Notes under the pieces: model-generated
What the model saw: only the letters and a program-made list of their open reading frames with translations
What the model was told of the DNA's origin: nothing
Databases searched by the model: none
Assembly (NCBI GenBank): GCA_963729715.1
Contig: CAVSPA010000003.1
Coordinates: 96,001 to 160,000 of the forward strand
Length of the DNA stretch: 64,000 nucleotides
Reading direction: 5' to 3'
Source of the DNA: an uncultured delta proteobacterium
Lineage (GTDB): Bacteria; Desulfobacterota; Syntrophia; Syntrophales; UBA2185
In this document: positions 14,392-45,847 of the stretch, piece after piece
Layout: each line of letters starts with the position of its first letter
Numbering within the stretch: the stretch's first letter is position 1
Program-made: the position numbers and the translations under genes

Positions 14392-14437
14392 TGTATGAGT
14401 TTTTACCTACCATTAAACTGCTATTTAACCATCATTG
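14392..14437 (+). promoter_or_regulatory. Regulon motif copy upstream of the usp gene
   Basis: CTACCATT-aaa-CTGCTATT-taaccatc-ATTG (14407-14437); left inverted half weak. Confidence 0.6.
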
Positions 14438-14600
14438 CCTTCTGCCATCAACTACACTAACTCTTACAACATGATATTGAGCTCTTTTAGTGCAAAAGAA
14501 TATCTTTAGAAAGAGTTATCTTCTTGCAGTCCATGGCGCTCTTATTGGACATCTGGCAAAGGCCTTCAACTCCGGCAATAAAGAGAAAGGAGGCATCCTT

Positions 14601-15022
14601 ATGTTTGAACCTAAGAGAATATTGGTGGCGACGGATTTTTCCAGATATTCGGACAAGGCATTAAGAATAGCAGTCGATATGGCAATGGAGTATAAGACAC
14701 ATATTTACCTTCTCCATGTCATCAGTGAGGCGGTGTATGACTGCGGCAACGATTATTGTCTCAGCGATGCGGATCTTGCGAAGATTGAGAAATACGGTTT
14801 GAAGACCTCAACGAATAAGCTGCATGCGGGGTAAATATAACCTTTGACATAAAGAGGGGACGTCCCTTCGAGATGATATTGAATGAGCAAAGGAAAAAGA
14901 ATATTGATCCCATCGTTGTTGCCTTCCACGGCAGGACGGGGGTCATGAAGTATCTCATAGGAAGCGTAGCAGAAAAGGTCCTGAGGGGCGCTAAGTGTCC
15001 CGTGCTGCTCGTCAAGTCCTGA
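14601..15022 (+). pseudogene. Universal stress protein, frameshifted/internally deleted near 14828
   Basis: ILVATDFS...LLHV, then in another frame GVNITF...HGRTG...GSVAEKVLRGAKCPVLLVKS*. Confidence 0.85.
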
Positions 15023-15134
15023 CGGACGGCTGAAAATAAAAGGGTTGATCAGTGAGGTTCCGGAGGGGGATGGTCCTGCCTCTTGGCCTTATACAAATTT
15101 TTGTACTAAATAAAGAACATTGAGGGAGGTAGTC

Positions 15135-15593
15135 ATGAGCAAGAAAGTCATCGATTTATTGAACGCCGCGAGATCAAGAGAGCTTACCGCGATTACTCAG
15201 TACATGGCCCAGCACTATGAATTGGAAGACAAAGATTTCGGCAAGCTCGCCAAGAAGATGAAAGAGATTGCCATACAAGAGATGAAGCATGCCGAAGCGC
15301 TGGCGGAAAGGATTCTGTTCCTGAAGGGTGTACCCACTACGAAGCCGGATTCGGAAATCCAGAAAGGCCAGGATATTGAGGCAATGCTGGCCACGAATGT
15401 CAAGCTCGAAAGCTACGCGGTCAAGATGTACAACGAAGCCGCCCTCGTTTGCGCGACTGAAAAAGATCAGATCTCCAAACAGCTCTTCGAAAAGCTTCTC
15501 GGTGAGGAAGAGGACCACCTCAACTTCTTCGAGAATACCGAAGACCACGTGGAAAAGCTCGGCGCGGCTTTCATGGTGACTTTGGCTGATTAA
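15135..15593 (+). CDS. bfr: Bacterioferritin / ferritin-like di-iron protein
   Basis: ELTAITQY, EMKHAE.LAERILFL.G.P, EEEDH. Confidence 0.85.
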   Translation: MSKKVIDLLNAARSRELTAITQYMAQHYELEDKDFGKLAKKMKEIAIQEMKHAEALAERILFLKGVPTTKPDSEIQKGQDIEAMLATNVKLESYAVKMYNEAALVCATEKDQISKQLFEKLLGEEEDHLNFFENTEDHVEKLGAAFMVTLAD

Positions 15594-15792
15594 TCTCGAA
15601 GGCAAACTGCATTCTTAGAAGAACAGTATTCACGGATATTATCCCTGCATGAATCCAGTGGTATGTCCGTTCGTCTACCGGTATCAGATAGGACTAAAGT
15701 GCTGCACCGTGAGAGTGATTGCGTGGTCATCGCGAGGCATGCAGTGACGAATCAATCTCATCCAATCTGTGTTCCTGTCACAGGGGGAATTC

Positions 15793-17418
15793 ATGGAATT
15801 TAACGTCGTCATCGGCGGGGAGGCGGGGCAGGGCCTTTTCTCAGTCGAACTCGGCCTGACGGATATCCTTTCACGGCTCAACTATTATTTTTTCGCGACC
15901 AAGAACTACATGTCCCGGATCCGGGGTGGCCACAACTTCCACATGATCCGCATCTCCGAGGAGCCTGTCCATGCCTTAAGCGGCCGGAGATGGGACATGG
16001 TCATCGCCCTCGACGGAGAAACGGACATCCGGCACAGGCCGGACCTCAGCGGCGACGGCATCTATCTTTCCCGGGAATTGACAAAAGAGATCGAAAAGGA
16101 AGCTAGGGAAAAGTTCCAAGACGTCAAGTTCGCAAACACGATGCTCGTCGGCTGCGTGCTTGCCGTAATCGGTGTGAGCCCCGACAGAATGACGGAGGGC
16201 GCCGAAGACGAAACCGCAAAATACTTGAGGGCGGGTTTCGACTACGCCATCATCTCTAACCTTGCCGGAAAATATCTTCTCCGACCTGTGGCAGGCGCCC
16301 ACTGCAAATTCGACGGGAATCAGGCCATAGCCTTAGGGGCGCTCTTGGGCGGCTGCCAGTTCATGGCGGGGTACCCCATGACGCCGGCCACATCCATCAT
16401 GCATTATTTTTCTACGGCAGCTCTTACGATGCCTGTCCATTTTGAACAGGCCGAGGACGAGATCTCCGCCATCAACATGGCCTTGGGCGCGTCCTATGCG
16501 GGCGTGCGATCAATGGTGGCCACTTCCGGCGGCGGCTTCGCCTTGATGCAGGAGGGGGTTTCGCTTGCAGGCATGACGGAAACGCCTGTTGTTATTGTTC
16601 TCGGCCAGCGGCCGGGCCCGGCTACAGGGCTTCCCACGCGGACCGAACAAGGGGAACTCAACCTTGTCCTTCATGCGGGCCATGGCGAATTTCCCCGGAT
16701 TATTTTTGCACCGGGCTCAATCGACGAAGCTATCGCCCTTGCCCGCAAGAGCTTCGCACTGGCCGACCGCTACCAGATACCCGTTTTTATCCTGACGGAT
16801 CAGTACTTCGCCGACTCCATCCAGATCATGCATGATGAAATACCCAAGGAATGCCTGAGCCGTGAGTACCCGGTCTTCGACGTTAGCTACAAACGATACA
16901 TGCTTACGGAAGATGGCATCTCCCCCTTAACATATCCCGGCCTTTCCGATGCGAGGGTCAGGCTCGATTCCGATGAGCACGATGAAGAAGGAAAAATCAC
17001 GGAAGATCTGGGCCTGAGGGTCCGTATGGTGGACAAGCGCCTGAAGACATTCGCACTGCTTGCGGGAGATTTCATGCCACCCACATTTTACGGTGACAGA
17101 AATGCGGCTTCCGTAATCCTCTCTTGGGGCTCGAACAAACTCATTGTGAAGGAGGCGCTGGAGAAGATCATAGAGGACGGGCAGAGCGCCGCTGCGCTTC
17201 ATTTCGGTCAGGTCCATCCCCTCACGGCGGCTATGGTTGCTCCATACGGCCTGGATGCGAAGAGGCTTATCTGTGTGGAAAATAACGCGAGGGGTCAGTT
17301 CGCAGGACTTCTGAAACGTGAACTGGGTCTTAATGTTGCCCACCCCGTGCTGAAATACAATGGCGAGTGCTTCACAGTCTCAGAGCTCTATTATATATTA
17401 AAAAAATTGTTGACGTGA
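15793..17418 (+). CDS. 2-oxoacid:ferredoxin oxidoreductase alpha subunit
   Basis: GGEAGQG, YMSRIRGGHN, AGYPMTPA, QAEDEI, RPGPATGLPT. Confidence 0.93.
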   Translation: MEFNVVIGGEAGQGLFSVELGLTDILSRLNYYFFATKNYMSRIRGGHNFHMIRISEEPVHALSGRRWDMVIALDGETDIRHRPDLSGDGIYLSRELTKEIEKEAREKFQDVKFANTMLVGCVLAVIGVSPDRMTEGAEDETAKYLRAGFDYAIISNLAGKYLLRPVAGAHCKFDGNQAIALGALLGGCQFMAGYPMTPATSIMHYFSTAALTMPVHFEQAEDEISAINMALGASYAGVRSMVATSGGGFALMQEGVSLAGMTETPVVIVLGQRPGPATGLPTRTEQGELNLVLHAGHGEFPRIIFAPGSIDEAIALARKSFALADRYQIPVFILTDQYFADSIQIMHDEIPKECLSREYPVFDVSYKRYMLTEDGISPLTYPGLSDARVRLDSDEHDEEGKITEDLGLRVRMVDKRLKTFALLAGDFMPPTFYGDRNAASVILSWGSNKLIVKEALEKIIEDGQSAAALHFGQVHPLTAAMVAPYGLDAKRLICVENNARGQFAGLLKRELGLNVAHPVLKYNGECFTVSELYYILKKLLT

Positions 17419-17427
17419 GGACTTAAG

Positions 17428-18252
17428 ATGCTGAAGAGAACAGACATGGCGTGGTGCCCGGGCTGCGGCGATTTCCCCATCCGGGACGTTCTGGAAAAAG
17501 CCCTCGACGAGCTTTCCATACCCGCGAAGGACATCGTCTTCACATCGGGGATCGGGCAGGCGGCCAAGATGCCGCATTACCTGGACGTCAATTACTTTAA
17601 CGGCCTCCATGGCAGGGCCCTGCCCCTTGCCGTGGGGATCAAACTCGCCAGACCTGACCTTACCGTCATCGCCTACTCGGGCGACGGCTGCAATTACGGC
17701 GAGGGAGGAAATCACTTCATCCATACGATCAGAAGGCGGCTGGATATTACGATACTGACATCGAATAACCAGGTATACGGGCTCACCAAAGGGCAGAGTT
17801 CTCCTACGACGGACCTATCCGTGATAAATGACCTCTCCCCCGCTGGGAACGAGAACATTCCCTTAAACCCCATAGCCCTGGCTATCACCATGGGAGCGCC
17901 TTTCGTAGCACGCTGCTACGCCTCCGACAGAGACCACATGAAAGAAGTTATTAAAGAAGCCATTCTCTTCAAAGGAACGGCGCTCGTCGACATTCTCCAA
18001 CCCTGCGTCACTTTCAACAAGATCAATACCTACCAGTGGTTGAGGGAAAGGGCGTTCAAGATCAAGAAGCCCATAGAGGACCGTTATGAGGCCATAAAGA
18101 CGGCGGAGCTATGGGGAGACAGGATTCCGATCGGCGTCATTTACAGAAACGACGCTGCCCTGTGCCGGGAAATAAAAAAAATCTTCCGCGAGAGGATAAG
18201 GGAAGAAGATATTGAAAAGCAGCTTGACATGCGTTGCGTCATGATGAGATGA
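17428..18252 (+). CDS. 2-oxoacid:ferredoxin oxidoreductase beta subunit
   Basis: WCPGCG, SGIG, LHGRALP, GDG, YGLTKGQ, LQPCVTFN. Confidence 0.93.
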   Translation: MLKRTDMAWCPGCGDFPIRDVLEKALDELSIPAKDIVFTSGIGQAAKMPHYLDVNYFNGLHGRALPLAVGIKLARPDLTVIAYSGDGCNYGEGGNHFIHTIRRRLDITILTSNNQVYGLTKGQSSPTTDLSVINDLSPAGNENIPLNPIALAITMGAPFVARCYASDRDHMKEVIKEAILFKGTALVDILQPCVTFNKINTYQWLRERAFKIKKPIEDRYEAIKTAELWGDRIPIGVIYRNDAALCREIKKIFRERIREEDIEKQLDMRCVMMR

Positions 18253-18275
18253 CGGCGCATCGTGAGGCACGCGTT

Positions 18276-18321
18276 GATGGTAGTTTATGCCTGTCAATAG
18301 ACCTTCAATTAATCACTATTG
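18276..18321 (+). promoter_or_regulatory. Regulon motif copy upstream of the small ORF at 18485
   Basis: GATGGTAG-N7-CTGTCAAT-aga-CCTTCAAT-taatcact-ATTG. Confidence 0.6.
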
Positions 18322-18484: not shown

Positions 18485-18664
18485 ATGAATAACATGGGAA
18501 CAGACCAGGCATGGCAGCAGATACAGGCAAAAGTCGAGGAACTGCTTCGTCAATCCCTTGCGGTAAATCCATTCTACAGGAGCGAATACAAACCTTCTGA
18601 TGTAGTCCATCTCTTAGAGATGCCCCGGGAGTATGGAAAAGATTATCAAGAGATAAAGCCCTGA
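18485..18664 (+). CDS. Small hypothetical protein
   Basis: AAGGAG RBS, 59-aa ORF downstream of a regulon motif. Confidence 0.55.
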   Translation: MNNMGTDQAWQQIQAKVEELLRQSLAVNPFYRSEYKPSDVVHLLEMPREYGKDYQEIKP

Positions 18665-18810: not shown

Positions 18811-19269
18811 GTGGATAATGTAGATATCCTGATCATCGAAGATAATCGTCACGATGCCGAGCTGATACTGGAAGCCCTGGAAGGACTGGACATTGGCAAC
18901 AGGGTTCGTGCCATACACGATGGCGTGGAGGCCTTGGATTATTTTTTTGGTCCTGACGGGTCCCTCAAGAAGGCAGACGCCCATCTGCCCAAGCTGCTCC
19001 TCCTCGATTTGAAACTGCCTAAGGTGAGCGGCCTGGAGATTCTGAAACGCATAAAGTCCGACGAACGGACCATGCACGTTCCCACCGTCATATTTACTTC
19101 CTCAAGCGAGTCGCAGGACAGGAGCGAAAGCTACAAACTCGGCGCCGACAGCTACGTCGTGAAGCCCATGGATGCTGATACGTTCTCTCGTTATGTTCAT
19201 GACATCGGAAAATACTGGCTTTCGATGAACACGACAATCTATAACGGCGGTCCGGCCCGGGCTCAATAA
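18811..19269 (+). CDS. Single-domain response regulator (Rcp1-like)
   Basis: LIIEDN, LDLKLPKVSG, GADSYVVKP. Confidence 0.9.
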   Translation: MDNVDILIIEDNRHDAELILEALEGLDIGNRVRAIHDGVEALDYFFGPDGSLKKADAHLPKLLLLDLKLPKVSGLEILKRIKSDERTMHVPTVIFTSSSESQDRSESYKLGADSYVVKPMDADTFSRYVHDIGKYWLSMNTTIYNGGPARAQ

Positions 19270-19360: not shown

Positions 19361-19406
19361 AATAGTAGGTAAATACTACCAATCAACTACCAATAAATCC
19401 CTATTG
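19361..19406 (+). promoter_or_regulatory. Regulon motif copy upstream of wrbA
   Basis: AATAGTAG-N7-CTACCAAT-caa-CTACCAAT-aaatccct-ATTG. Confidence 0.7.
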
Positions 19407-19526: not shown

Positions 19527-20156
19527 ATGGAGCACATCATGAAGGTCCTCATCGTTTACTATTCCATGTACGGCCATATTCACCGCATGGCGGAGGCCGT
19601 GGCGGAAGGTGCGAGGATGGTTAAAGGGGCTGATGTTTACGTGCATCGTGTTCCGGAAACCCTTACGGAAGAAGTCCTGGGAAAGATGGGCGCTCTCGAG
19701 GCGCAAAAGGGTCTTGCCCACGTCCCTGTCTGTACGGTGGATGAAATCGCCACTGCGGATGCTATCATCTTCGGCACGCCCACGCGCTTCGGGAATATGT
19801 GCGGGCAGATGCGGCAGTTCCTCGATGCGACAGGCGGCCTCTGGGCCAAAGGAGCCCTTATCGGCAAGGTGGGGAGCGTTTTTACAAGCAGCGCCACTCA
19901 ACACGGCGGTCAGGAATCCACCATACTTACTTTCCTTACGAATCTTCTTCACCAGGGCATGGTAGTTGTCGGCCTCCCGTACTCCTTTGACGGACAGATG
20001 CGGATCGATGAAATCACCGGCGGTTCACCCTACGGGGCTTCCACGATCGCGGGAACGCAGGGCGAGCGCATGCCGAGCGAAAATGAATTAAATGCGGCCC
20101 GGTTCCAGGGCCGGCATGTGGCTGAGATAGCGGCCAGACTGACATACAAGAGCTGA
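19527..20156 (+). CDS. wrbA: NAD(P)H:quinone oxidoreductase WrbA
   Basis: [33 protein letters not shown]. Confidence 0.96.
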
Positions 20157-20553: not shown

Positions 20554-22149
20554 ATGACGAAAAGAATACCTGCAGCAGATAAGCGCATCGATGAGCTCAG
20601 GGTGAGGGCGGAAGATGCCCTGTCCGGGAAGGCCGCAAAGCGCGGTGAGCCATCCGCCGATATCCAGAAGCTCATTCACGAACTCAATGTTCATCAGATA
20701 GAGCTGGAGATGCAGAATGAGGAACTGCGAAAGTCGCAGATGGAGACCGCCGCAGAACACCACAAGTACACCGACCTTTATGACTTCGCCCCTGTCGGGT
20801 ATTTCACCCTCGATAAGAAGGGACGTATCATTAAAGCGAATGTCACGGGCGCCTCTTTGCTCGGCTCTGAGAAGAGATCGCTCATAGGACAACCGTTCCG
20901 TCGTTTTATCACACCCGGGCATTTCAGTATCTTCCAGTCCCATCTTCAGAATGCCCATGAATCGCAAAGCAAACAGACCTGCAAACTGAAGCTCACCGGG
21001 AAGGACGGCAGCCTGTTCGACGCACTGATCGACACCATAGCAGTAATGGATGGTGACGGTAATTTTGATAACTACCGTTCTTCCGTCACTGACATCACGG
21101 AGATTACGAGGGCAGAGGAGAAGATGGCGTATCTGGCCTCGTTTCCCATGCTCAACCCGAATCCCGTGGCAGAAGTGGATTTTGCGGGGCAGGCCCATTA
21201 CCTTAACCCCGCCGCCGAGCTTTTATTCCCGGATCTCCGCGAGCGCGGAGCGGCGCATCCGTGGCTTCACGATTGGAAAGCGGTGGTTTCTGCCTTGCGC
21301 AAAAACGGGTCAAGAGAAATCGTACGGGAAGTGAATGTTGGCGAGCGCTGGTGCCAGCAAACGTTGCATTTAGTGGAAGGAGCCCAGCGCATCCGCATCT
21401 ACGGAATGGATATCACTGAGAGCAAGCATGCGGAGTTGGAGATGAGGGAAGGGAGAAGGCAATTGGAATATGCCATCAAGGAACTCGAAAGCTTCAGCTA
21501 TTCCGTCGCTCATGATCTGCGCGCCCCGCTCCGGGCCATAGACGGCTATGCGCGCCTGATCCTCAAGAGGCAGGGGGATAAGTTTGACCAAGACACCCTC
21601 GATAAATTTAACGTGATCAGGTCCAGCACGCGCCTGATGGGGCAGCTCATCGACGACCTCCTGACCTTCTCCCGCCTGGGGAGGAAGCATATATCCCCCA
21701 TGCCCTTGGATATGGATATCCTCATGAAAGACGCGTGGAAAGAAGTGCAGGTGAGCGACCCGGAGAGGGACATTAAGCTTGAAGTAGGGAGCATGCCTCC
21801 GGGCTACGGGGACATGGCCCTCATCAAACAGGTATTGATCAACCTCCTTTCCAACGCCGTAAAATTCACGAAATACAAGGATGCCGCAAATATCGAGGTG
21901 GGAGGCTACGCCAACGGCAATGAACACGTGTATTATATCAGGGACAACGGTGTAGGCTTCGACATGGCCTATTACGATAAGCTCTTCGGCGTCTTTCAGA
22001 GACTGCATAGTACGGAGCAGTTCGAAGGCACCGGCGTAGGCCTGGCGACCGTCGAGCGCCTCATACAGAGGCATGGCGGCAGGGTATGGGCGGAGGGTAA
22101 GGTGGATGAAGGGGCCTGTTTTTATTTCGCACTAAACATTAAGGAGTGA
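20554..22149 (+). CDS. Cytoplasmic PAS-domain sensor histidine kinase
   Basis: ELEMQNEEL coil, YDFAPVGY PAS, H-box FSYSVAHDLRAPL, NAVKF, DNGVGF, GTGVGLA. Confidence 0.95.
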   Translation: MTKRIPAADKRIDELRVRAEDALSGKAAKRGEPSADIQKLIHELNVHQIELEMQNEELRKSQMETAAEHHKYTDLYDFAPVGYFTLDKKGRIIKANVTGASLLGSEKRSLIGQPFRRFITPGHFSIFQSHLQNAHESQSKQTCKLKLTGKDGSLFDALIDTIAVMDGDGNFDNYRSSVTDITEITRAEEKMAYLASFPMLNPNPVAEVDFAGQAHYLNPAAELLFPDLRERGAAHPWLHDWKAVVSALRKNGSREIVREVNVGERWCQQTLHLVEGAQRIRIYGMDITESKHAELEMREGRRQLEYAIKELESFSYSVAHDLRAPLRAIDGYARLILKRQGDKFDQDTLDKFNVIRSSTRLMGQLIDDLLTFSRLGRKHISPMPLDMDILMKDAWKEVQVSDPERDIKLEVGSMPPGYGDMALIKQVLINLLSNAVKFTKYKDAANIEVGGYANGNEHVYYIRDNGVGFDMAYYDKLFGVFQRLHSTEQFEGTGVGLATVERLIQRHGGRVWAEGKVDEGACFYFALNIKE

Positions 22150-22157
22150 CTTTTTTC

Positions 22158-22601
22158 ATGGGCAATATTGATGTTCTTCTCGTCGAAGACAATCCTCACG
22201 ATGCTGAGATGATCCTGGATACCCTCAGCCGGCAGGATATCTCCAACAGGGTCCGGGCCATAAGCGATGGCGCGGAAGCTCTCGATTATTTGTTCGGGCC
22301 CGAGGGATGCCTTGCGAAGGCGGAGGTTCATCTCCCCAAGGTGATCCTCCTCGATTTGAAACTCCCCAAGGTCAGCGGCCTGGAGATTCTGAAACGCATC
22401 AAGTCCGATGAACGGACAAGGCATATCCCGGTTGTCATATTTACTTCCTCCGATGAAGAGCGAGACAGGACGGAAAGCTACAGGCGCGGGGCGAACAGCT
22501 ATATTGTTAAGCCCATGCAAGCGGCGGCGTTCTCGCGTTTTGTTGCCGAACTCGGGGCATACTGGGTATCGATGAATATAACGCCCTATGCGGATGCGTA
22601 A
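22158..22601 (+). CDS. Single-domain response regulator (Rcp1-like)
   Basis: LLVEDN, LDLKLPKVSG, GANSYIVKP. Confidence 0.92.
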   Translation: MGNIDVLLVEDNPHDAEMILDTLSRQDISNRVRAISDGAEALDYLFGPEGCLAKAEVHLPKVILLDLKLPKVSGLEILKRIKSDERTRHIPVVIFTSSDEERDRTESYRRGANSYIVKPMQAAAFSRFVAELGAYWVSMNITPYADA

Positions 22602-22716: not shown

Positions 22717-23961
22717 ATGTCCGAGAAATTGAAAGTATTAATCCTTGAAGATGTCCCTACGGATGCGGAGTTGATGATAGAGGAGCTCGCGGATGCAGGC
22801 ATGACGTTTGTTTCGAAGCGTGTCGTCACGAAGGCGTCCTTTGTCAATGCGATTGCTGATTTTTACCCGGACATTATTCTTTCCGATTATTCTCTGCCCT
22901 CATTTGACGGTCTTGCGGCCTTGAAGATCGCGAGGGAGAGATGTCCAGATGTGCCTTTTGTTTTTGTTTCGGGAGCGCTGGGCGAGGAGATGGCGATTGA
23001 CCTTCTCAAGAAGGGTGCTACGGACTATGTTCTGAAGAACAGGTTATCGCGTTTGGAGCCGGCGGTATCGCGCGCGTTGCATGAGGTTGAGGAGCGGCGC
23101 GAGCGAGAGCGTGCGGAGCATGCGCTGAAGGAATCGGAGGTCAGGTACCGGACGATATTTGAGAACACGGGGACGGCGACGGTGATCGTTGATGAAGATG
23201 CGACTATAGTTTTGGCGAACAGGCAGTTTGAGAGGTTGACGGGTTTTTCCCGGTCGGAGATCGAGGGGAAGAAGAAGTGGACGGAATTCGTGCTTGAGGA
23301 TGATCTTCCGAAGTTGAAGCTCCTCTCGCGCGCGGTGGGCAAGCATTCCCGGACGCCCTCTGACGGCTATGAATTCCGGATCACTAATAATCACGACGGG
23401 GTTCTGAATGTCCTGGCAAATGTGGCGTCCATACCTTCCACGAAGAGGGTGGTCATGTCTTTCCTTGATATTACAGAGCGAAAAATGGCCGAAGAAGTCC
23501 TGAAGAAAAGGGAGCAGGAGCTGCAATTGAAATCGCAAAGTCTTGAGGAAGCCAATACGGCGTTGAAGGTCCTGTTGAAGCACCGGGAAGAAGATAAGGC
23601 TACCCTCGAAGAACAGGTGCTGGCCAACGTCAAAAAGCTTGTTTTACCCTACCTGGAAAAATTGAAGGGCCCGAGGCTGGATAGCAGCCAGCGGGTTCAC
23701 GTAGAGATCATTGAGGCCCATTTGAATGACATCGTATCACCCTTCTTGAGGAATCTGTCCTCCGCGTACCTCAGTCTGACACCGAGGGAAATTGAGGTGG
23801 CTACACTCGTCAAGGAAGGAAAGACGACCAAGGAAATAACCAAGCTTCTTAATATATCCACCACTGCGGTAGACTTCCATAGAAAGAATCTGCGTTCCAA
23901 GTTTGGTATAAAAAGCAAGAAAACGAATCTGAGGTCATTTCTCACGTCCCTCTATTCATAG
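22717..23961 (+). CDS. Response regulator with REC, PAS and LuxR-type HTH domains
   Basis: LILED..DYSLP REC, central PAS, C-terminal LTPREIEVA..VKEG.TTKEI...HRKNLRSK. Confidence 0.93.
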   Translation: MSEKLKVLILEDVPTDAELMIEELADAGMTFVSKRVVTKASFVNAIADFYPDIILSDYSLPSFDGLAALKIARERCPDVPFVFVSGALGEEMAIDLLKKGATDYVLKNRLSRLEPAVSRALHEVEERRERERAEHALKESEVRYRTIFENTGTATVIVDEDATIVLANRQFERLTGFSRSEIEGKKKWTEFVLEDDLPKLKLLSRAVGKHSRTPSDGYEFRITNNHDGVLNVLANVASIPSTKRVVMSFLDITERKMAEEVLKKREQELQLKSQSLEEANTALKVLLKHREEDKATLEEQVLANVKKLVLPYLEKLKGPRLDSSQRVHVEIIEAHLNDIVSPFLRNLSSAYLSLTPREIEVATLVKEGKTTKEITKLLNISTTAVDFHRKNLRSKFGIKSKKTNLRSFLTSLYS

Positions 23962-24272
23962 CAGCTTGCGCCTGCCATTACCCTGTAATTTTAGCGTCGT
24001 TGGTTCGGCTGGCAGGTCTTCCGGTTTGTGATAGGCTTGATTTATGTCTCCGTGGGTAGCTAGCGCATTCCCGGTACGAAAATAAACTCTTTTATGTCAT
24101 TCAGTGCCCGGCGACAGTAGTGTAATTATTTTTCTTGTCATCTAAAATGATAGTGAAACGAGAATTTTTTATGACGATAAGAATGACATGTTTTCCTGAT
24201 ATTACAGAGCTTCTTGGCAGGATTTAGAGATCAGTTATTTTTCCATATTGTAACACACTCGAGGAGGATGCT

Positions 24273-25688
24273 ATGGGAAGAAGAATCGGTGCTTTTTATA
24301 TTACCAAGGGTTTGTTCATTCTCGCTCTCGCTTTGATTGTTTTCGCCGCCGCTTGTCTTAATGACAAGGGGCGCACCGAGGCAGTCGGCTTTCCCCAGTC
24401 CTTTGCTGAGCTTGCCAAGAAGGTCACGCCTGCCGTTGTAAATATCAGCACAACAACGACGGTCAAGGTACCAGGCAATCCTTTCAGGCAGTTCTTCGGA
24501 CCCCGCGGCGGGCCATTCGAGGACTTCTTCGGTGACATGCCGGACAAGGAAATGAAACAGCGAAGCCTCGGCTCGGGCATCATTGTAGATAAAGAAGGAT
24601 ACATAATCACGAACAATCACGTTGTCTCCGGGTCGGGAGAGATCAAAGTCAAGCTTACGGACGGAAGGGAATACACGGCGAAAGTGATCGGCAGGGATCC
24701 CAAAACAGATCTGGCCCTGATTAAAATATCATCTATCTTCAAAGACCTTCCGACACTTGCCTTAGGTGACTCAGACATTATGCAGGTAGGCGACTGGGTG
24801 CTGGCTATCGGAAACCCCTTCGGGCTGGAACACACGGTTACGCAGGGCATTATCAGCGCCTCCGGCCGTGTTATCGGCTCCGGACCGTACGACAATTTCC
24901 TCCAAACCGATGCCCCTATCAACCCGGGAAACAGTGGGGGACCGCTGGTGAATATGAAAGGCGAGGTCATCGGGATAAACACTGCCATCGTTGCCGCGGG
25001 TCAGGGTATCGGGTTTGCAATTCCGAGCAGCACCGCAAAGGGTGTTATCGCCCAGCTTCGGGAAAAGGGCAAGGTAGTGCGGGGCTGGTTGGGGGTCTCG
25101 ATTCAGATGGTCACGCCTGAACTGGCGCCGTCCTTCGGGCTGAAAGAAGCGCGCGGAGCCATAGTTGCCGATGTTGTCAAGGGCAGTCCCGCAGAAAAGG
25201 CCGGCATCGAACAGGGAGACGTCGTCCTTGCCTTTGACGGCAAGGACGTCAAATCCTCAAACGACCTTCCATGGATCGTTGCAGAGACTCCCGTGGGGAA
25301 GACCGTTAATGTCAAGTTGATACGGCAGGGGAAAGAACTCGATGTTAAAGTGACGATAGTGGAAATGACGGAGCAGCGCCAGGCGCTGCAGGCGGGCAAG
25401 ATAAAAAACGTCTTCGGCTTTACAGTCGACAACGTAAAGCCTGAGTGGAGGAGGCAGTTTGATCTGACTGCAAAGGCGGGGGTCGTGGTTACACAGGTTG
25501 AGACGGACAGCCTCGCCGATGACGCAGGCATAGAGCCCGGCGATGTGATCGGGGAAGTGAATAAAAAAGTGATCAAAGATTTAAACGATTTCAAGACGGC
25601 AATGGCGCAGGTTAAGTCGAATGAAAGTGTGGTCTTTCTTTTGAGCCGCGATGATCAATCGTATTACGTGTCCATAGCAGTGCCTTAG
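24273..25688 (+). CDS. DegP/HtrA (Do family) serine protease with two PDZ domains
   Basis: TNNHVV, TDLAL, INPGNSGGP, two PDZ regions. Confidence 0.96.
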   Translation: MGRRIGAFYITKGLFILALALIVFAAACLNDKGRTEAVGFPQSFAELAKKVTPAVVNISTTTTVKVPGNPFRQFFGPRGGPFEDFFGDMPDKEMKQRSLGSGIIVDKEGYIITNNHVVSGSGEIKVKLTDGREYTAKVIGRDPKTDLALIKISSIFKDLPTLALGDSDIMQVGDWVLAIGNPFGLEHTVTQGIISASGRVIGSGPYDNFLQTDAPINPGNSGGPLVNMKGEVIGINTAIVAAGQGIGFAIPSSTAKGVIAQLREKGKVVRGWLGVSIQMVTPELAPSFGLKEARGAIVADVVKGSPAEKAGIEQGDVVLAFDGKDVKSSNDLPWIVAETPVGKTVNVKLIRQGKELDVKVTIVEMTEQRQALQAGKIKNVFGFTVDNVKPEWRRQFDLTAKAGVVVTQVETDSLADDAGIEPGDVIGEVNKKVIKDLNDFKTAMAQVKSNESVVFLLSRDDQSYYVSIAVP

Positions 25689-29836: not shown

Positions 29837-29905
29837 CAATAAGGGTAAAATGGTCGTGAATTGGTAGGAAATAGCTCCCATTCCTCTTCCATTTAATACT
29901 CATTG
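29837..29905. promoter_or_regulatory. Back-to-back pair of regulon motifs serving glgP (-) and the gene at 29991 (+)
   Basis: Shared palindrome ATTGGTAG-N7-CTCCCATT, with a direct repeat and ATTG at the conserved spacing on each strand. Confidence 0.7.
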
Positions 29906-30544: not shown

Positions 30545-30590
30545 ACAGGTAGCTTATACCTACCATTCTTCTTCTATTTTATCCTCATTG
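30545..30590 (+). promoter_or_regulatory. Regulon motif copy upstream of the small Cys-rich gene
   Basis: ACAGGTAG-N7-CTACCATT-ctt-CTTCTATT-ttatcctc-ATTG. Confidence 0.7.
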
Positions 30591-32637: not shown

Positions 32638-33879
32638 ATGCGTTTCCTTGCAGACCTTCACATCCATTCAAGATATTCCATAGCGACGAGCACTGACCTG
32701 TCCCCCGAAACTATATGGAAATGGGCGCAGCTCAAAGGTATCACGGTCATCGGCACGGGGGATTTCACTCACCCGCTATGGCTGGCGGAATTAAGAAAGA
32801 AGCTGGAAAGAGCGGATAATGGACTATTCCGCCTGAAGAATAAATTCCACGGGCATGAAATTCCTGATGCATGTAAAGCCCCTGTATTCTTTCTTCTCTC
32901 CGCAGAGATAAGCTGCGTCTATAGAAAGGACGGGAAGACCAGGAAAGTACACTCCATCGTATTTGTCCGTGACTTTTCCGATGCCGCAAAATTGACCAGG
33001 GTGCTGACAAAAATTGGGAGTCTCGCCTCGGACGGGAGACCCATCTTGAAGCTGTATGCAAAGGATCTCTTGAAAATAGTACTGGATTCATCTGCTCATG
33101 CCATGCTTGTCCCTGCGCACGCGTGGACGCCGCATTTTTCCATATTCGGCGCGGCATCCGGATTTTCCTCTCTTGACGAATGCTTTGAAGAATTGACGCC
33201 AAATATCTATGCTATTGAAACAGGACTCTCCTCAGACCCGGCCATGAATTGGCGGCTCTCATCCCTTACCAGGATAACCTTGATATCCAATTCCGATGCA
33301 CATTCTCCATACACCATCGGCCGTGAAGCAAGCATATTTGACTGCGAAGTCTCATATGCGGCGATTACGGATGCCATAAAATCTAAAAAAGGTCTTGTCG
33401 CTACAATCGAATTCTTCCCGCAGGAGGGGAAATATTATTACGACGGCCACCGCTCCTGCGCCGTAAGCATGAATCCGGCAGAAACGATCCGGCATAAGTA
33501 TTTGTGTCCTGTGTGCGGCAGGAAATTAACCATGGGCGTCATGCATAGAATTGAACAGCTCGCGGACAGAAGGATGGGATTCAAGCCAAGAGGTGCACCG
33601 CCTTTTTATTCCGTAATCCCTCTCCGGGAGATTATTGCAGAAGTACTCCAGCGGGGCGTAAAAACGAAAACAGTCGATAACGAATATATGAGATTGCTCA
33701 AGGAACTGGGCAACGAAATGAGCATCCTCATAACGGTACCTCTGAAAGATATAGGGCGTGCCGGTTCGCCCCGTCTTGCGGAGGCCGTCTCACGCATGCA
33801 GAGGGGAGATATCAATATCATGCCCGGTTTCGACGGCGAATACGGGAAGGTGAAAATCTTTGACAAAGCTGACAGGTGA
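32638..33879 (+). CDS. Endonuclease Q family protein (PHP domain plus Zn finger)
   Basis: DLHIHSRYS, GTGDFTHP, PAHAWTP, ETGLSSD, SNSDAHS, GKYYYDGHR.C, CPVCG, PGFDGEYG. Confidence 0.9.
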   Translation: MRFLADLHIHSRYSIATSTDLSPETIWKWAQLKGITVIGTGDFTHPLWLAELRKKLERADNGLFRLKNKFHGHEIPDACKAPVFFLLSAEISCVYRKDGKTRKVHSIVFVRDFSDAAKLTRVLTKIGSLASDGRPILKLYAKDLLKIVLDSSAHAMLVPAHAWTPHFSIFGAASGFSSLDECFEELTPNIYAIETGLSSDPAMNWRLSSLTRITLISNSDAHSPYTIGREASIFDCEVSYAAITDAIKSKKGLVATIEFFPQEGKYYYDGHRSCAVSMNPAETIRHKYLCPVCGRKLTMGVMHRIEQLADRRMGFKPRGAPPFYSVIPLREIIAEVLQRGVKTKTVDNEYMRLLKELGNEMSILITVPLKDIGRAGSPRLAEAVSRMQRGDINIMPGFDGEYGKVKIFDKADR

Positions 33880-35834: not shown

Positions 35835-38468
35835 ATGTCTATAAGAACCAAACTTTTGATCAATGTTCTCCTGATGGTAGTTTCTTTTCTTGTCATTGCA
35901 TTCGTCCTCAACATTGCGAGAAATGGAATAGCCGACTCTGTCAGGAGAGCCGACTTCGCCGACCAGGTCGCCATCGGCGTCTCCGACATGAACACCATCA
36001 CATACGACTACTTGATGAGGCCGGGTGAACGCGCCCGGCAGCAATGGCAAATGAAGCATGCCTCGCTTGATGATCTCATGAAAGGCGCAAATTTCAAGAG
36101 AAAAGAGGTGATGGTGATCCTGCAGAGGATCATGAAGAGCCATGAAGAGACGGCCCTGTTTTTTAAACAGCTCGTTGAAAACAGCGAGAAAAAGAAACAC
36201 GCCTCCGCCTCCCTACGGGCTTTTCTCGATGAAAATGATAAAAGGAACGTGACGCAGCTCATGGCCAGGTCTCAGATCATGGCCAGTGAATCGCACTTGT
36301 TTGCCCGGGAAGGCGAAGTTACAATTCAAAAAGCGCTTACACGGTCTGTCTGGTTTATCACCGTTACGCTTATCATAATGATAGTGATTTCAGGCGCCAT
36401 ATCCTATTTCCTGAGCGGGAATATAACGGCATCTATCAAGACCCTCAAAAACGGAACGGAGATAATTGCCCGGGGCGATCTCGAATGCAGGGTGCCCATA
36501 AGAGGCCGGGATGAGATTGCGTCACTGTCCCTTTCATTCAATGAGATGGCAGGGAAACTGAAGAACGCCAATGCAAGTCTGCGGGCGGAGATAGAGGAAA
36601 GGGAAAAGGCCAGGGAAGCGCTCCGCATCGCCAGTCTTTATATGCGCAGCCTCATTGAGGTGAGCCTGGACCCGCTGGTTACGATCAGCGCCGAAGGCAG
36701 GGTGATGGATGTGAACAAAGCCACGGAGGATGTTACCGGCGTGCCTCGTGAGAAACTCATCGGCAGTGATTTCTCCGACTATTTCACCGAGCCCGAGAAG
36801 GCGCGGGAAGGATACAATAGGGTTTTCTCTCAGGGGTTTGTTAAAGACTATCCCCTCGCCATCCGCCATATGTCGGGCCGAATAACAGAGGTTCTTTACA
36901 ACGCCGCAACTTATGCGGACTATAAGGGAGAAGTGCAGGGGGTTTTCGCGGCAGCCCGGGACGTAACGAAACTCAGGGCGGCACAAAAGGCATTACAGAA
37001 ATCATACGATGAATTAGAACGGCGGGTCGAGGGAAGAACGGCCGAGCTTCGGGAAAGCGAGGAACGCCTGACGCATGCGCTCGAAGCAGGTGAGCTCGGC
37101 ATATGGGGACTCGACACGAAAACAGGAAAGGCCTGGCGTTCGCTCCGCCACGATCAGATCTTCGGTTACGATACAATTCTCCCTGAGTGGACATATCAGA
37201 TGTTCCCCGAACATGTGGTAGCGGAAGATCGCAATGAAGTAAACGAGAAGTTCGGGTATGCGATATCGAGAGGCGCGGAATGGAATTTTGAGTGCCGCAT
37301 CCGCAGGACCGATGGGGACGTCCGCTGGATATGGGCGCAGGGAATGCCCAGGCTGAACGAACGGAATGAAGTCGTTTCCATGGTCGGCCTCGTGAGGGAT
37401 ATTACCGGCCGCAAGCAGGCGGAAGCGGAAACGGAACGCTTGGCAACGTTTCCCAGGCTGAACCCGAGTCCTATAGTAGAGACGGATATGGCGGGCAGTA
37501 TCCAGTTTCTCAATCCTGCCGCCGAACGATTGTTCCCCAATATCCGTGAGCGCGGGCTCGCACATCCGTGGCTTGCACATTGGGAGGCGCTGGTGCGCGC
37601 CTGCCGTGAGGGAGGAGTGGAATGCGGCGAGTGTGAAGTGACCGCAGAAGGAAGATGGTACCTGCAAACGATACATTTTGTAAAAGATGTTGAACGCATC
37701 CGCATATACGGACTGGACATTACCGAGCGCCGATTGGCAGAAATGGAACTCAAGGAACGGACAGTTCAGCTCGAAGCGGCCAACAAGGAACTGGAGGGTT
37801 TCAGCTACTCGGTCTCCCACGACCTTCGGGCGCCACTGCGGGCCATAGACGGCTTCTCCATAAGACTCATACGGGACTTTGAAGGCAAGCTTGAAGAAGA
37901 CGGCGTGAGAAAGCTTCATGCCATAAGCAGGAACGTCCAGCAGATGGGCCAGCTCATTGATGATCTTCTTTCTTTTTCAAGATTGAGCCGTAAGGAAATG
38001 CATATGTCCCGGGTAAATATGGAAGCAATGGCGCACGATGTATGGAGCGAGATCAAAGAATTAAACCCGAACCGCGAGCTTGACGTCAAGATCGTCAATA
38101 TGATACCTGTCTTTGGCGACGCCTCCCTCATCAGACAGGTCGTAGTCAATCTTCTTTCCAATGCCGTCAAGTTTACAAGGGGCAGAAAACCTGCTGCGAT
38201 TGAAATAGGCAGTCGCAACGAGGGGAGTGAAATAACTTATTACGTGAAGGATAACGGTGCGGGTTTCGACATGAGATATTCCGACAAGCTCTTTGGCGTC
38301 TTCGAACGGCTGCATCGGCCGGACGAGTTTGAGGGAACGGGTGTTGGGCTCGCCATCGTCCAGCGCATTATTCACCGCCACGGCGGCCGGGTTTGGGCGG
38401 AAGGCAAAGTGAACGGGGGAGCAACAATTTATTTTACCATTGCCGGAAAGGAGAAAACAATTGCTTGA
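35835..38468 (+). CDS. Membrane-bound HAMP/multi-PAS histidine kinase
   Basis: Two TM helices, HAMP (DEIASLSLSFNEM), three PAS-like regions, FSYSVSHDLRAPL, HATPase boxes. Confidence 0.95.
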   Translation: MSIRTKLLINVLLMVVSFLVIAFVLNIARNGIADSVRRADFADQVAIGVSDMNTITYDYLMRPGERARQQWQMKHASLDDLMKGANFKRKEVMVILQRIMKSHEETALFFKQLVENSEKKKHASASLRAFLDENDKRNVTQLMARSQIMASESHLFAREGEVTIQKALTRSVWFITVTLIIMIVISGAISYFLSGNITASIKTLKNGTEIIARGDLECRVPIRGRDEIASLSLSFNEMAGKLKNANASLRAEIEEREKAREALRIASLYMRSLIEVSLDPLVTISAEGRVMDVNKATEDVTGVPREKLIGSDFSDYFTEPEKAREGYNRVFSQGFVKDYPLAIRHMSGRITEVLYNAATYADYKGEVQGVFAAARDVTKLRAAQKALQKSYDELERRVEGRTAELRESEERLTHALEAGELGIWGLDTKTGKAWRSLRHDQIFGYDTILPEWTYQMFPEHVVAEDRNEVNEKFGYAISRGAEWNFECRIRRTDGDVRWIWAQGMPRLNERNEVVSMVGLVRDITGRKQAEAETERLATFPRLNPSPIVETDMAGSIQFLNPAAERLFPNIRERGLAHPWLAHWEALVRACREGGVECGECEVTAEGRWYLQTIHFVKDVERIRIYGLDITERRLAEMELKERTVQLEAANKELEGFSYSVSHDLRAPLRAIDGFSIRLIRDFEGKLEEDGVRKLHAISRNVQQMGQLIDDLLSFSRLSRKEMHMSRVNMEAMAHDVWSEIKELNPNRELDVKIVNMIPVFGDASLIRQVVVNLLSNAVKFTRGRKPAAIEIGSRNEGSEITYYVKDNGAGFDMRYSDKLFGVFERLHRPDEFEGTGVGLAIVQRIIHRHGGRVWAEGKVNGGATIYFTIAGKEKTIA

Positions 38469-38901
38469 CGATATAATCGATGTCTTACTCATAGAGGATA
38501 ACTCTGACGATGTGGATCTGACCCTTGACGCGCTTAATGTGCATAAACTTGCCAACCGCGTTAAGGTATTGCGGGACGGTGCGGAGGCGCTTGATTATAT
38601 ATTCTGCACAGGGCAGTTTGCGGACCGGGACATTTGCGTCGGTCCGAAGGTGATTCTCCTTGACCTCAAGCTTCCGAAGGTCGACGGCATTGAGGTCTTG
38701 CGCAGAATCAGGTCTGATGAGCGGACAAAGACACTGCCCGTCGTCGTTCTCACTTCTTCTAACGAACAGAAGGACCGGGTCGACAGTTACGAACTCGGGG
38801 TGAACAGTTATATCGTGAAACCAGTTGAATTTGAAAATTTTGCACGTGCGGTGGCCGACATAGGATTCTACTGGGTCTTGCTGAACAAAGTGCCTTTCTG
38901 A
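38461..38901 (+). CDS. Single-domain response regulator (Rcp1-like)
   Basis: LLIEDN, LDLKLPKVDG, GVNSYIVKP. Confidence 0.92.
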   Translation: MLDDIIDVLLIEDNSDDVDLTLDALNVHKLANRVKVLRDGAEALDYIFCTGQFADRDICVGPKVILLDLKLPKVDGIEVLRRIRSDERTKTLPVVVLTSSNEQKDRVDSYELGVNSYIVKPVEFENFARAVADIGFYWVLLNKVPF

Positions 38902-42919: not shown

Positions 42920-42983
42920 AGAACCCGCGCGTGAGAACTTTTTCCGCAGAATGCAGAGTAGGGGGTATGTCAAGCGATGTTAG

Positions 42984-43979
42984 CTATGCCGATATTGAGC
43001 TCATCAGATAGTTCTGAAGGGTTTGATACATCTCAACATCAGTGTCAACCAAAGAAGCGCCAATCTTGGTTCCTTGATCAGACCGAAACACACGTTGGGG
43101 CACGCACTGGATGCTAAGGGGCTTCTTACTTTCAGGCAGTGCGAAGGTGATGGTCATCCTGGACGCATCCCCGTCTCCCTGCTTCTTGAATTTATAGGTG
43201 CTCGGGATCGATATCTGTAATCCGCCTAGAGAAATATCTACGACCAATGCGGTTTGTAACAGCGCCTTATCCTCCAATCCACAGCCGCCCACCAAAGCGG
43301 GAAGAGAGACGGCCTTTCTCGGATGCCGGCGTTTTTCTCCCTCCACTTTCTTGTTCCGGGAAAATTCAGGATAGAGCTTCTTCACGCAATCGGGACAGAT
43401 GCTGTGCGTAAAATCGAGAGCGGAATGGCTCTTCAGATAGGATTCAACTTGTATCCAGTAGCCGTCATCATTGCGTATATTCTTGCAGTTAGCGCAGATG
43501 GGGAGAAGTCCGCTCAATGTTTTTATATTATCGAGCGCCTCTTTCAGTTCCGTTATTAGTCTTTCCTTCTCCCTTATATTGTTGAAGCGTTCTATGGAAT
43601 ATTTTATGGAACGATGAAGCAGAGTGCTGTCCGTCCTGTTCTTATTTAGATAGTCCTGAACACTGTGCTGCAAAGCCTGTATGGCTGTGGCTTCATCATC
43701 GAGGCCGGTGAGGACGATAATGGGTGCATTCTTTTCTCTCTCCCCCATTTTTTTTACGGTGTCAAGGCCCTTGCTGTCAGGGAGGGACAAGTCGAGGAGA
43801 ATTACATCCACCACATTTTCAGCCAAATATTTTAAGGCGTCACGGAGCCGTTCTTTGTGGACCAATTCGTAATTGACATCTTTAGATCCGTTTACGTCGG
43901 CCTGATAGATCATATCTTGAATCAATACGGCATCCGTTATGTTATCCTCGACGAGCAGTATCCTTAGTGCATTTTCCAT
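42984..43979 (-). CDS. Response regulator: REC, Cys-rich (CxxC..CxxC) domain and PilZ domain
   Basis: LLVED..LDLSLPD, LPICANCK...HSICPDC, RRHPR...DISLGG. Confidence 0.88.
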   Translation of the reverse strand: MENALRILLVEDNITDAVLIQDMIYQADVNGSKDVNYELVHKERLRDALKYLAENVVDVILLDLSLPDSKGLDTVKKMGEREKNAPIIVLTGLDDEATAIQALQHSVQDYLNKNRTDSTLLHRSIKYSIERFNNIREKERLITELKEALDNIKTLSGLLPICANCKNIRNDDGYWIQVESYLKSHSALDFTHSICPDCVKKLYPEFSRNKKVEGEKRRHPRKAVSLPALVGGCGLEDKALLQTALVVDISLGGLQISIPSTYKFKKQGDGDASRMTITFALPESKKPLSIQCVPQRVFRSDQGTKIGASLVDTDVEMYQTLQNYLMSSISA

Positions 43980-44002
43980 TATCCTGTCCTCTTGATTTGT
44001 AT

Positions 44003-45667
44003 TCAGGTTAGGGGTCTGCCGTTCAGCCTCTGGTAAACCTTCACGTACTCATCAACCATAGTGTCTAAACCGTATCTCTTTCTTGCCTCCCTCATGATCC
44101 TCTTTATCTGCTGCTCTCTTATCTCCAGAGGTTTCCTGTGGAACTGCACACTCATAGAGAGTCCGTGCCATAACCCGCCAGGGTCGTAATTACAGAAGAG
44201 GAATCCGTTTCCCTCGTCGCAAGAAGCGCCATCGCACCTCAATTGTAACTCCTCTATCTTATCGCTATAACCGCCGGTGTCACGATTCGTCGCCGTGGCG
44301 CCGAAGAGATTGCCTATCTGGTCTATCTGACCGCAAGGCTCGTAGAGGGATGCACCGAATACATCGCTCGCCGCTGCGTAGCCGAGCATGGAGAGGGGTT
44401 CGCTGAATCGCTGGTACGTTATCTTGCCGCCCGAGGCGCAGGCGATCCTCCCCATAATCTCCTCGTGGGTCTGATCGCCCTCAACGCCATTACCGACAAC
44501 GGCAATCTGAACGTCGCCGTTTTCTATGACAAATCTAAGAGCAATGTCTTCGAGAAGCTCACATCCTTTCTGCGTTTCATCGAGCCGCGATGGCCAGTAG
44601 AGAAGTATCGCATCCGGATTCACGACGAGTCCCGTCCTCTTCTGAAATTCCACCAGGTTTTCCCTCTTTGCCGTCATGACATCGTCATCGGGACCGTACT
44701 TCCTTGCAAGGTGCTCACACCTTTCCGGATACATCCGAGGGGACGGCGCATTGATGATAGAGAATACCGCACCGTGATTGTACTTTTCCTTGACTTCCTG
44801 TCTAACGCTCGGAGGGATGAATGATCTATCCAGAAAATAGTCTTCGATGATCTCCCTGAGGAACTTTTCCCCGACAAAATTGACCAGGGTGGCGCTCTTA
44901 ATGGCTGTAGCCTGGGAGTCTATGCATATCCTTCCATTTTCTTTCGAGAAGTAGATGTTCCATGTGAGGCTGTCGATATCTACGCCAAAAAGCATATCTA
45001 AAGGGACGTGGCCTGTGTGAACGTTGTGCACCGTGTGCAGTACGGGGCAGTCCCTCGATTTGGCGTAGGCCGTAACGGCGCCGCCTGCCATCCAGTCGTG
45101 GCTGTGCACGATCAGCCTCCCTCCGCACCTCGCCCGCACTGTCTTGATGGTGTTGTTTACCAGTTCCTTCTGAAATTCAGCGGCATTGGAAAGCGGATCC
45201 CCAGAATATGGGCTGAGAAGGTTCGCATAGATAGACGAGCTTACCAGGTGGATCTTGTCAGGATCAACCTTATCTCTTACCTGACGCCATGCATGTTCAT
45301 CCATGCCGCTCTCCTCTTTGAAGCGTCTTCTCAGATTAATCGTCGCCAGGTGGCAGTTGATCCCCCGCGCCAGAAGCCCCTCGGAGAGCGCGGAAACTAC
45401 CTCTCCCAAGCCCCCCGACTTGCCGGATATGTATCTCGCAAGACTTCCCATGTCTTCCGGCAGCCGGCCTGTCTCCGGAGCTACAAGGAGCACCGCCGTC
45501 TTTCCTGCCTTCTTCAGGATCGTAAATGTCTTTACATTCTTCATCCCCTTCACAGGACGGTTCCCTTGACGCCGGCGCGGCCGGTTTTTTACATACATAC
45601 CCTGAGGGTTATCCGCCCTGTAGCCGGAAGCCATATTCATCTGGGGCTTATGAAGTTTTCTTGCCAT
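44003..45667 (-). CDS. Glycogen/starch synthase-like glycosyltransferase (start may be 45544)
   Basis: KSGGLG, HSHDW, HTVHN, SRL...QKG, SLYEPCG. Confidence 0.88.
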   Translation of the reverse strand: MARKLHKPQMNMASGYRADNPQGMYVKNRPRRRQGNRPVKGMKNVKTFTILKKAGKTAVLLVAPETGRLPEDMGSLARYISGKSGGLGEVVSALSEGLLARGINCHLATINLRRRFKEESGMDEHAWRQVRDKVDPDKIHLVSSSIYANLLSPYSGDPLSNAAEFQKELVNNTIKTVRARCGGRLIVHSHDWMAGGAVTAYAKSRDCPVLHTVHNVHTGHVPLDMLFGVDIDSLTWNIYFSKENGRICIDSQATAIKSATLVNFVGEKFLREIIEDYFLDRSFIPPSVRQEVKEKYNHGAVFSIINAPSPRMYPERCEHLARKYGPDDDVMTAKRENLVEFQKRTGLVVNPDAILLYWPSRLDETQKGCELLEDIALRFVIENGDVQIAVVGNGVEGDQTHEEIMGRIACASGGKITYQRFSEPLSMLGYAAASDVFGASLYEPCGQIDQIGNLFGATATNRDTGGYSDKIEELQLRCDGASCDEGNGFLFCNYDPGGLWHGLSMSVQFHRKPLEIREQQIKRIMREARKRYGLDTMVDEYVKVYQRLNGRPLT

Positions 45668-45801
45668 GGTAATCTTCACTGCACGCGTCCTTCGTGCGAA
45701 AACAGGGTGAATATCCTTTCGCCCCAAGATAGATCACTTGCTGCACTGCTCCGGGTGGAAGGCCAATTTATTAGTATTACACTACCATTGGCAGCGCTAA
45801 G

Positions 45802-45847
45802 CAATGAGGATTAAATGGAAGAGTAATGGTAGTCATAAGCTACCTAA
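45802..45847 (-). promoter_or_regulatory. Regulon motif copy upstream of the glycogen synthase-like gene
   Basis: Minus strand TTAGGTAG-N7-CTACCATT-act-CTTCCATT-taatcctc-ATTG. Confidence 0.7.

Follow-up and report, generated by a model that had tools for sequence, protein, structure and literature searches.

A conserved 46-base promoter element of the Syntrophales and a LuxR-type response regulator predicted to read it

A 46-base motif recurring in a 64,000-nucleotide stretch from an uncultured delta proteobacterium (assembly GCA_963729715.1, contig CAVSPA010000003.1, positions 96,001 to 160,000; hereafter the window) is a real, conserved promoter element of the Syntrophales, the order to which the closest relatives of the source genome belong. 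Taken as a whole, the motif probably combines a three-part element with a predicted sigma70 promoter and serves as the operator of the response regulator encoded at 22717-23961 of the window, which, when phosphorylated, would activate a general and oxidative stress regulon. This reading starts from what was observed directly, namely the site and the genes downstream of it, the constancy of its geometry, its conservation, and the way in which it co-occurs and is physically linked with the clade of the regulator. An initial annotation of the window had described seven copies of the motif and had named no regulator; the gene at 22717-23961 is put forward here as the likely one.

All seven copies were recovered at their coordinates and on their strands, the one ahead of usp spanning positions 14392-14437 instead of 14407-14437 as first given. 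A matrix built from the seven matched 19 sites above 21 bits in the 3.76-megabase genome, and in a leave-one-out analysis each held-out window copy ranked in the top 3-12 among 7.5 million positions. A second matrix was trained solely on 44 sites of other genera, some of which are orthologous to window sites; it placed all seven window copies among the top 8 matches of the genome and revealed 20 genome sites above 20 bits, compared with 0 for each of 6 column-shuffled matrices. Eighteen of the 20 lie wholly outside open reading frames (ORFs) of at least 100 amino acids, in a genome that is 84% coding. The list of seven was correct and incomplete: sites 23957-24002(+) and 52399-52444(-) had been missed and bring the window total to nine.

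The anatomy of the motif was derived from 170 non-redundant sites. An inverted repeat with the half-site CTACCATT and an AG-N7-CT core occupies positions 1-8 and 16-23, two arms of 8 base pairs (bp) around a 7-bp spacer (8-7-8) within the 46 bases of the element. Weaker direct copies of the half-site begin at positions 27 and 38, giving an 11-bp period; the half-site is matched at 6.7 of 8 bases in register 16, at 5.4 in register 27 and at 4.6 in register 38, and mostly at 1-3.7 in other registers. A T-W-W-A patch is present at positions 34-37 and TTG at positions 44-46. The earlier suggestion that a terminal ATTG begins a -35 box was borne out, as TAnnnT was found at exactly 17 bp past the TTG hexamer in 75 of the 170 sites, compared with 1-23 sites at the other spacings (13-21), and at 17 bp in 15 of the 30 sites of G144, a genome outside the training set. 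The spacing agrees with a sigma70-type promoter, in which a -35 TTGnnn and a -10 TAnnnT are 17 bp apart; the core promoter behind the motif is weak. The information content was 43 bits in the motif versus 1.2 bits in the upstream flanks. No covariation was detected at any of the 11 arm pairs across the 170 sites and Rfam returned no match within the window, and because of this the motif is regarded as a DNA element. In line with the proposal of an operator/promoter, it is almost certainly a protein-binding operator fused to a promoter, the binding being predicted from these patterns. If a canonical start site is assumed, the dyad centre would lie at about -67, the two copies at about -48 and -38, and the T-W-W-A patch at about -43; the tail of the alpha subunit of RNA polymerase usually binds near -43.

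With a corrected motif pattern, 3-26 sites were found in each of 15 of 31 relatives, and none with the reversed control. When a sample of 201 Syntrophales genomes was scanned, 46 contained a match and 28 contained at least three, the reversed control matching in 14 of the 201. Outside the order, a phylum sample of 339 genomes yielded, with two mismatches allowed, a single match in one genome, and plasmids yielded two partial matches only. In the relatives, 74 of 75 sites were located outside ORFs of at least 150 amino acids. Conservation upstream of orthologues, foreseen in the initial annotation, was confirmed for glgP, where the site is kept in front of all eight close orthologues; it is absent from 21 more distant phosphorylase loci.

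Presence of the motif follows presence of the regulator. In the discovery set of 31 relatives, the C-terminal part of the regulator is at least 72% identical in exactly the 15 genomes with at least three sites. A profile search of the order separated 30 orthologues (at least 253 bits) from the paralogues (at most 237 bits). All 30 orthologue genomes carry at least one site and 27 carry at least three, whereas among the 171 genomes of the order without an orthologue one carries at least three sites and 15 carry one or two. The 16 orthologue genomes beyond the discovery set contain 1-33 sites each, and inside the genera g4, g21, g42, g54 and g58 site and regulator gene were gained or lost together. 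The two are also physically linked: a site lies no more than 8 bases from the stop codon in 19 of the 30 orthologue loci, and a same-strand site lies no more than 9 kilobases (kb) upstream in 16 of 24 relative loci, several of the other loci being short. Phylogenetic analysis with FastTree placed the orthologues in one clade (support 0.98) with a distinct recognition helix. It is very likely that the regulator 22717-23961 reads the motif, with binding predicted from these associations.

Judged at the level of sequence, the strongest independent evidence that this regulator family reads these sites is provided by the layouts behind its paralogues. Paralogues with different helices have the same layout past the stop codon, with different half-site letters. 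A letter-independent score (palindrome, 11-bp repeat and TTG at positions 44-46; threshold at least 10 of 16) was reached behind the stop codon in 12 of 42 paralogues and in 11 of the 23 distinct orthologues; in the background, 6 of 2697 ends of other genes and 3 of 400 AT-rich ends did so. For one paralogue clade, a single operator per genome was found, located next to its gene, and the other 26 genomes had none; as this sister-operator pattern had been built from the five loci that it found and is therefore circular, the result speaks for once-per-genome occurrence only. In the source genome, a sister operator with a different half-site is situated at G000:C9:91301(+), directly behind the stop codon of the paralogue at C9:88858-91302, and C3:375507 and C18:28600 resemble it. 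Residue K390 is invariant in the stress clade and absent at this position from the paralogue helices (mostly N or D); it presumably aligns with a base-reading lysine of NarL and may read the CC of the half-site. The use of one layout with different letters by sister regulators suggests a readable protein-DNA code. With somewhat less than an even chance, the Syntrophales have expanded an undescribed class of activators, in which a LuxR head is combined with a kinase-like helical hairpin and input domains. These would share one promoter template, consisting of an 8-7-8 dyad, an 11-bp repeat and a -35 box at a fixed position, with a half-site for each paralogue, often behind its own stop codon. 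One member would then be a master regulator of stress and oxygen survival in these strict anaerobes, acting via an Lvr-like phosphorelay and doing the job of RpoS, SigB or DosR, and the pairs of helix and half-site would constitute the code.

The proposed cognate regulator (22717..23961, plus strand) has 414 amino acids, and a structure model (mean predicted local distance difference test score 85.5, predicted template modelling score 0.50) comprises a REC domain, a helix at residues 107-149, a PAS domain, a hairpin and a helix-turn-helix. The latter, of LuxR/GerE type (residues 356-413; PF00196, 51.4 bits), contains the clade-specific recognition helix, and the C-terminal fold superimposes on NarL (1je8) and DosR (1zlk) over 62-63 residues with Z 8.7 and a root-mean-square deviation of 1.7-2.0. 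In the REC pocket, E11, D12, D57 and K107 were found to be invariant and S85 to be present in at least 90% of 62 sequences. The protein departs from the two-domain REC-helix-turn-helix architecture of NarL/FixJ in that a signalling helix, the PAS domain and the hairpin at 253-352 are placed in between. The hairpin is modelled as helices 253-317 and 323-352; its best match apart from helix-turn-helix proteins was the DHp domain of ERS1 (Z 8.0, root-mean-square deviation 5.3, 93 aligned residues), which is within the range of generic helical matches. Profile searches of residues 253-352 gave no significant match to kinases, and Foldseek with the hairpin model gave nothing at an E-value of 0.001 or better. 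REC is present in all 24 relative loci, PAS in 15, and a single-domain receiver is encoded upstream in 18; the sensor domains of the kinases among the relatives are PAS only, a weak Cache match, or MEDS-PAS. Nine receivers of the single-domain type are encoded in the source genome alongside several related kinases, suggesting that many inputs feed the network. Over 770 bp, the REC-PAS coding region of the regulator (22717-23493) and the N-terminal part of a HisKA_3-type kinase gene on another contig (G000:C4:277013-277782) share 94.5% identity, and from this identity one input module would appear to drive two outputs. Many assemblies break at the REC-PAS module, and G007:C72 joins a window-type kinase/receiver to a C4-type pair, a junction that is either real or mis-assembled.

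Binding, activation, start sites and signal are deduced from these patterns, and the proposed mechanism would proceed as follows. A sensor kinase such as that encoded at 20554-22149 would phosphorylate D57, with the single-domain receiver acting as a sink or relay, and the phosphorylated REC domain together with the signalling helix would dimerise, as reported for LvrB. The dimer would bind the inverted repeat at about -67, and further subunits would line up along that face of the DNA toward the promoter, occupying the weaker copies 11 and 22 bp downstream and reaching the -35 box. The bound regulator could then recruit RNA polymerase to the weak promoter. With the regulator's own gene block and a second kinase/NarL-type pair predicted to be among the targets, feedback and a cascade would be expected. 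The signal is most likely exposure to oxygen or oxidants, or energy stress; this is the weakest step, and that the signal is oxygen or general stress is favoured with moderate confidence.

Several observations weigh against this reading. Genome G157 (90% complete) contains 10 good sites, located in front of genes that are wrbA-like, katG-like and Hsp20-like by their sequence, and three queries found no orthologue in it; three orthologue genomes have just one or two pattern matches. The profile used for the order was made from 18 orthologues, two of which had been sought because their genomes had sites, and the Fisher values for the co-occurrence are overstated owing to the relatedness of the genomes. 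By score, 7 of the 30 orthologues (an approximate count) are in compact islands, where co-transfer could inflate linkage. An adjoining kinase is present in just 12 of the 24 loci, with varying sensor domains. A strict TAnnnT at 16-18 bp is found in just four of the nine window sites, and many targets fall outside the stress genes, most of all in G144.

A further such point is that the third and last repeat, at positions 38-45, runs into the TTG of the -35 box, an overlap that would also be compatible with a repressor site. The same regulator and site might serve in repression, the protein covering the -35 box until the signal changes. This is unlikely, given the fixed spacing to the -35 box, which is the same in paralogue operators with different letters, and the weakness of the core promoter. 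Fixed -35 spacing and a weak core promoter are typical of polymerase-contacting activators, and we consider it likely that the regulator activates transcription.

That the site is read by some other factor travelling with the stress island, for instance an OmpR/PhoB-type protein or an alternative sigma factor, is a distinctly less probable alternative. The direct repeats that cover the -35 box resemble a pho box, though only in their 11-bp period; G157 has sites without a member of the regulator clade, and an rpoH-like gene is a target in G144. On the other side, LuxR-family paralogues carry private versions of the layout, and no second conserved regulator was seen in the island maps inspected, a check short of a genome-wide screen of regulator families. 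The RpoH-like sigma factor gene of G144 (L324:1944-2795) immediately follows a strong site and is 4.6 kb away from the regulator.

It is very improbable that the motif is read by the NarL-type response regulator on contig C4 (278855-279508). A 43.5-bit site is located upstream of its kinase operon and is kept in three close relatives, and its kinase has the 770-bp, 94.5% identical N-terminal module in common with the window regulator. However, when 15 candidates were scored per genome, it was present in just 13 of the 28 genomes with at least three sites, and 33 of its 46 carriers had fewer than three. Having failed the co-occurrence test, this candidate was rejected as the reader and is better understood as a target. 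An RNA hairpin, a REP-like repeat or the end of a mobile element would explain a recurring inverted repeat, yet the lack of covariation and of Rfam matches, on which the hairpin was rejected, the low information of the flanks and the orientation of the sites toward genes, upstream of a predicted promoter, make this scarcely credible. The regulator 22717-23961 is retained as the predicted reader of the motif.

Among the targets supported by profiles in the relatives are Usp, ferritin-like proteins, WrbA, Cu/Zn and Fe/Mn superoxide dismutases, hybrid cluster protein (hcp), PfpI, Cfa, transketolase, SufC-like protein, SppA, FKBP, flavin reductase, a sigma factor and OsmC, with a superoxide-reductase-like gene further along; for the KatG-like, Hsp20-like and phasin-like targets, the names come from sequence alone. 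Secreted or unknown proteins account for many of the targets. The regulon uniting glycogen metabolism with redox stress that had been put forward initially holds as far as the two are joined, but glycogen genes are targets in the window's family and G041, that is, in part of the order, and elsewhere phasin-like and DUF3141 genes are found. At loci L322 and L336 (G134, G186), phasin-like, DUF3141 and CoA-transferase genes follow the operator beside the regulator, which suggests storage of polyester rather than glycogen in that lineage. In the source genome, targets outside the window include the kinase/NarL-type operon, two secreted paralogues, sodC, a phosphofructokinase-like gene and a small gene with a polyphosphate-kinase-like gene behind it; these were named from sequence, except for sodC, which was confirmed through its counterpart in G007.

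Within the window, site 14392..14437(+), whose left arm is degenerate, is placed ahead of usp (14601-15022), a bacterioferritin-like gene (15135-15593) and 2-oxoacid:ferredoxin oxidoreductase genes (15769-18252). Site 18276..18321(+) precedes a small ORF of 59 amino acids (18485-18664) and a single-domain receiver gene (18811-19269), and site 19361..19406(+) precedes wrbA (19527-20156), after which the kinase, receiver and regulator genes follow on the same strand; this site is a possible autoregulatory promoter for that block. The kinase (20554..22149, plus strand) is a cytoplasmic PAS-HisKA-HATPase protein with LvrA as best NCBIfam model and is the likely phosphodonor of the regulator. The single-domain receiver protein (22146..22601, plus strand), which we take to be Rcp1-like, is the one encoded directly upstream of the regulator in 18 of the 24 relative loci. 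Site 23957..24002(+) overlaps the stop codon of the regulator ahead of degP/htrA (24273-25688), its -10 box being poor in this genome. Sites 29837..29882(-), ahead of the alpha-glucan phosphorylase gene glgP (27129-29657; TIGR02094), and 29860..29905(+), ahead of a secreted-protein pseudogene (29991-30371), use one common dyad, 29860-29882. Site 30545..30590(+) is followed by a small cysteine-rich ORF (about 30728-30904), a phosphoribosyltransferase (PRTase) remnant (30995-31150), a dienelactone-hydrolase-like gene (31940-32632) and a TIGR00375-like gene (32638-33879). On the minus strand, site 45802..45847 lies ahead of a GT5 glycogen-synthase-like gene (44003-45727; 130.5 bits, under the glgA cut-off), and site 52399..52444 ahead of a P-type ATPase gene (49631-52180), inside an ORF of 103 amino acids without a Pfam match; near-identical counterparts of this last site were found in G002, G004, G005 and G006. 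Three targets are broken in the source genome and their sites persist. Of the downstream genes as first annotated, the secreted pseudogene was correctly called, with two in-frame stops (it is intact in relatives), while usp proved to be frameshifted and the PRTase gene at 30995 truncated.

Of the known systems, DosR/DevR is the one to which a link had been drawn initially. Its Dev box is an 18-bp palindrome with GGGACT halves, and the two systems have in common a NarL-type DNA-binding fold, strong and weaker adjoining sites in helical phase by the promoter, divergent promoters with common sites, autoregulation and classes of targets, Usp, the P-type ATPase ctpF and Rv0571c being in the DosR table (PMC3177182). 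The phased strong and weak sites are seen here in sequence as the falling match at registers 16, 27 and 38. The differences are an 8-7-8 dyad with CTACCATT halves and single direct copies at 11 bp, GGGACT being found in none of the seven sites; a regulator with an extra signalling helix, an optional PAS domain and a 100-residue hairpin; and an adjoining kinase with PAS, HisKA and HATPase domains only and no GAF domain in Pfam. The DosR/DevR regulon has haem-GAF sensor kinases and is induced by hypoxia, NO or CO. The initial link stands as an analogy in gene content only. NarL/FixJ proteins resemble the regulator in a phosphorylatable REC domain, a LuxR helix-turn-helix and a TACC-like half-site; here, the half-sites face the other way around a 7-bp spacer and the protein has four modules. 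NarL sites are TACYNMT heptamers in a 7-2-7 arrangement. The proposed match to NarL operators was not upheld, since the heptamer as first given occurs in 2 of the 7 sites and the 7-2-7 arrangement in none. We conclude that the system works like DosR and is neither DosR nor NarL.

PimM-type PAS-LuxR activators of Streptomyces are pathway-specific and bind a palindromic 16-bp CTVGGGAWWTCCCBAG site at the -35 region (PMC9774167). They likewise combine PAS with a LuxR domain; the present consensus, compared by eye with the one given there, is different, and REC at the N-terminus is constant here (24 of 24) with PAS optional (15 of 24). For Leptospira LvrB, it is reported that phosphorylation drives coiled-coil formation and that output proceeds via the kinase core to an anti-sigma factor (PMC13269768; PDB 8vc9). 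The REC domain and signalling helix of the regulator are 47% identical to LvrB over about 150 residues, and the neighbouring kinase scores best with the LvrA model. Unlike in LvrB, the same input module is placed on a DNA-binding domain, and there is no HATPase domain and thus no Rec-DHp-CA architecture; both proteins score far under the NCBIfam cut-offs (regulator 158.6 of 500 bits, kinase 239.5 of 1200 bits). General stress regulons of RpoS and SigB include WrbA, ferritins, SodC, PfpI, Cfa, OsmC and glycogen enzymes. The target classes are alike, whereas control here would be by a response regulator at sigma70-type promoters instead of an alternative sigma factor. A literature search of partial coverage, with subscription papers mostly outside it and RegPrecise not searched, yielded no description of the motif or the regulator family and no regulon for the Syntrophales.

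Syntrophales degrade fatty acids and aromatics in methanogenic soils, sediments and digesters and are mostly uncultured. A named regulator, an operator and target lists are now available for them, and motif and regulator may serve as a marker of lineages that probably withstand oxygen or starvation. With the template common to the family, each orphan paralogue can be matched to an operator from sequence alone, and the series of paralogues and operators is suited to studying how LuxR-type helices change specificity. If the helix-to-half-site code is true, it would assign targets to hundreds of orphan regulators in uncultured syntrophs.

Some minor observations were made in addition. Five of the genome's nine related single-domain receivers are encoded in the window (10396-10833, 18811-19269, 22146-22601, 38440-38901 and 53981-54475). 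Upstream of the stress cluster, a divergent pair of SRAP and S24-peptidase genes and IS110 transposase (10907-12224 and 4736-6220) are present. At G000:C1:22255-22795, the divergent promoter pair of glgP recurs in decayed form together with an intact copy of the secreted gene, and no glgP was seen adjoining. An AT-rich bidirectional palindrome of 19-20 bits between divergent genes (G000:C4:630691-630737) is probably the operator of a different factor. The small secreted protein family of 29991-30371, which has no Pfam match, follows the operator in at least four of the order's families (L129, L173, L289, L344), and an unannotated protein of 54-66 amino acids, similar by eye to that of 18485-18664, is encoded behind the operator in distant lineages (loci L179, L277 and L282).

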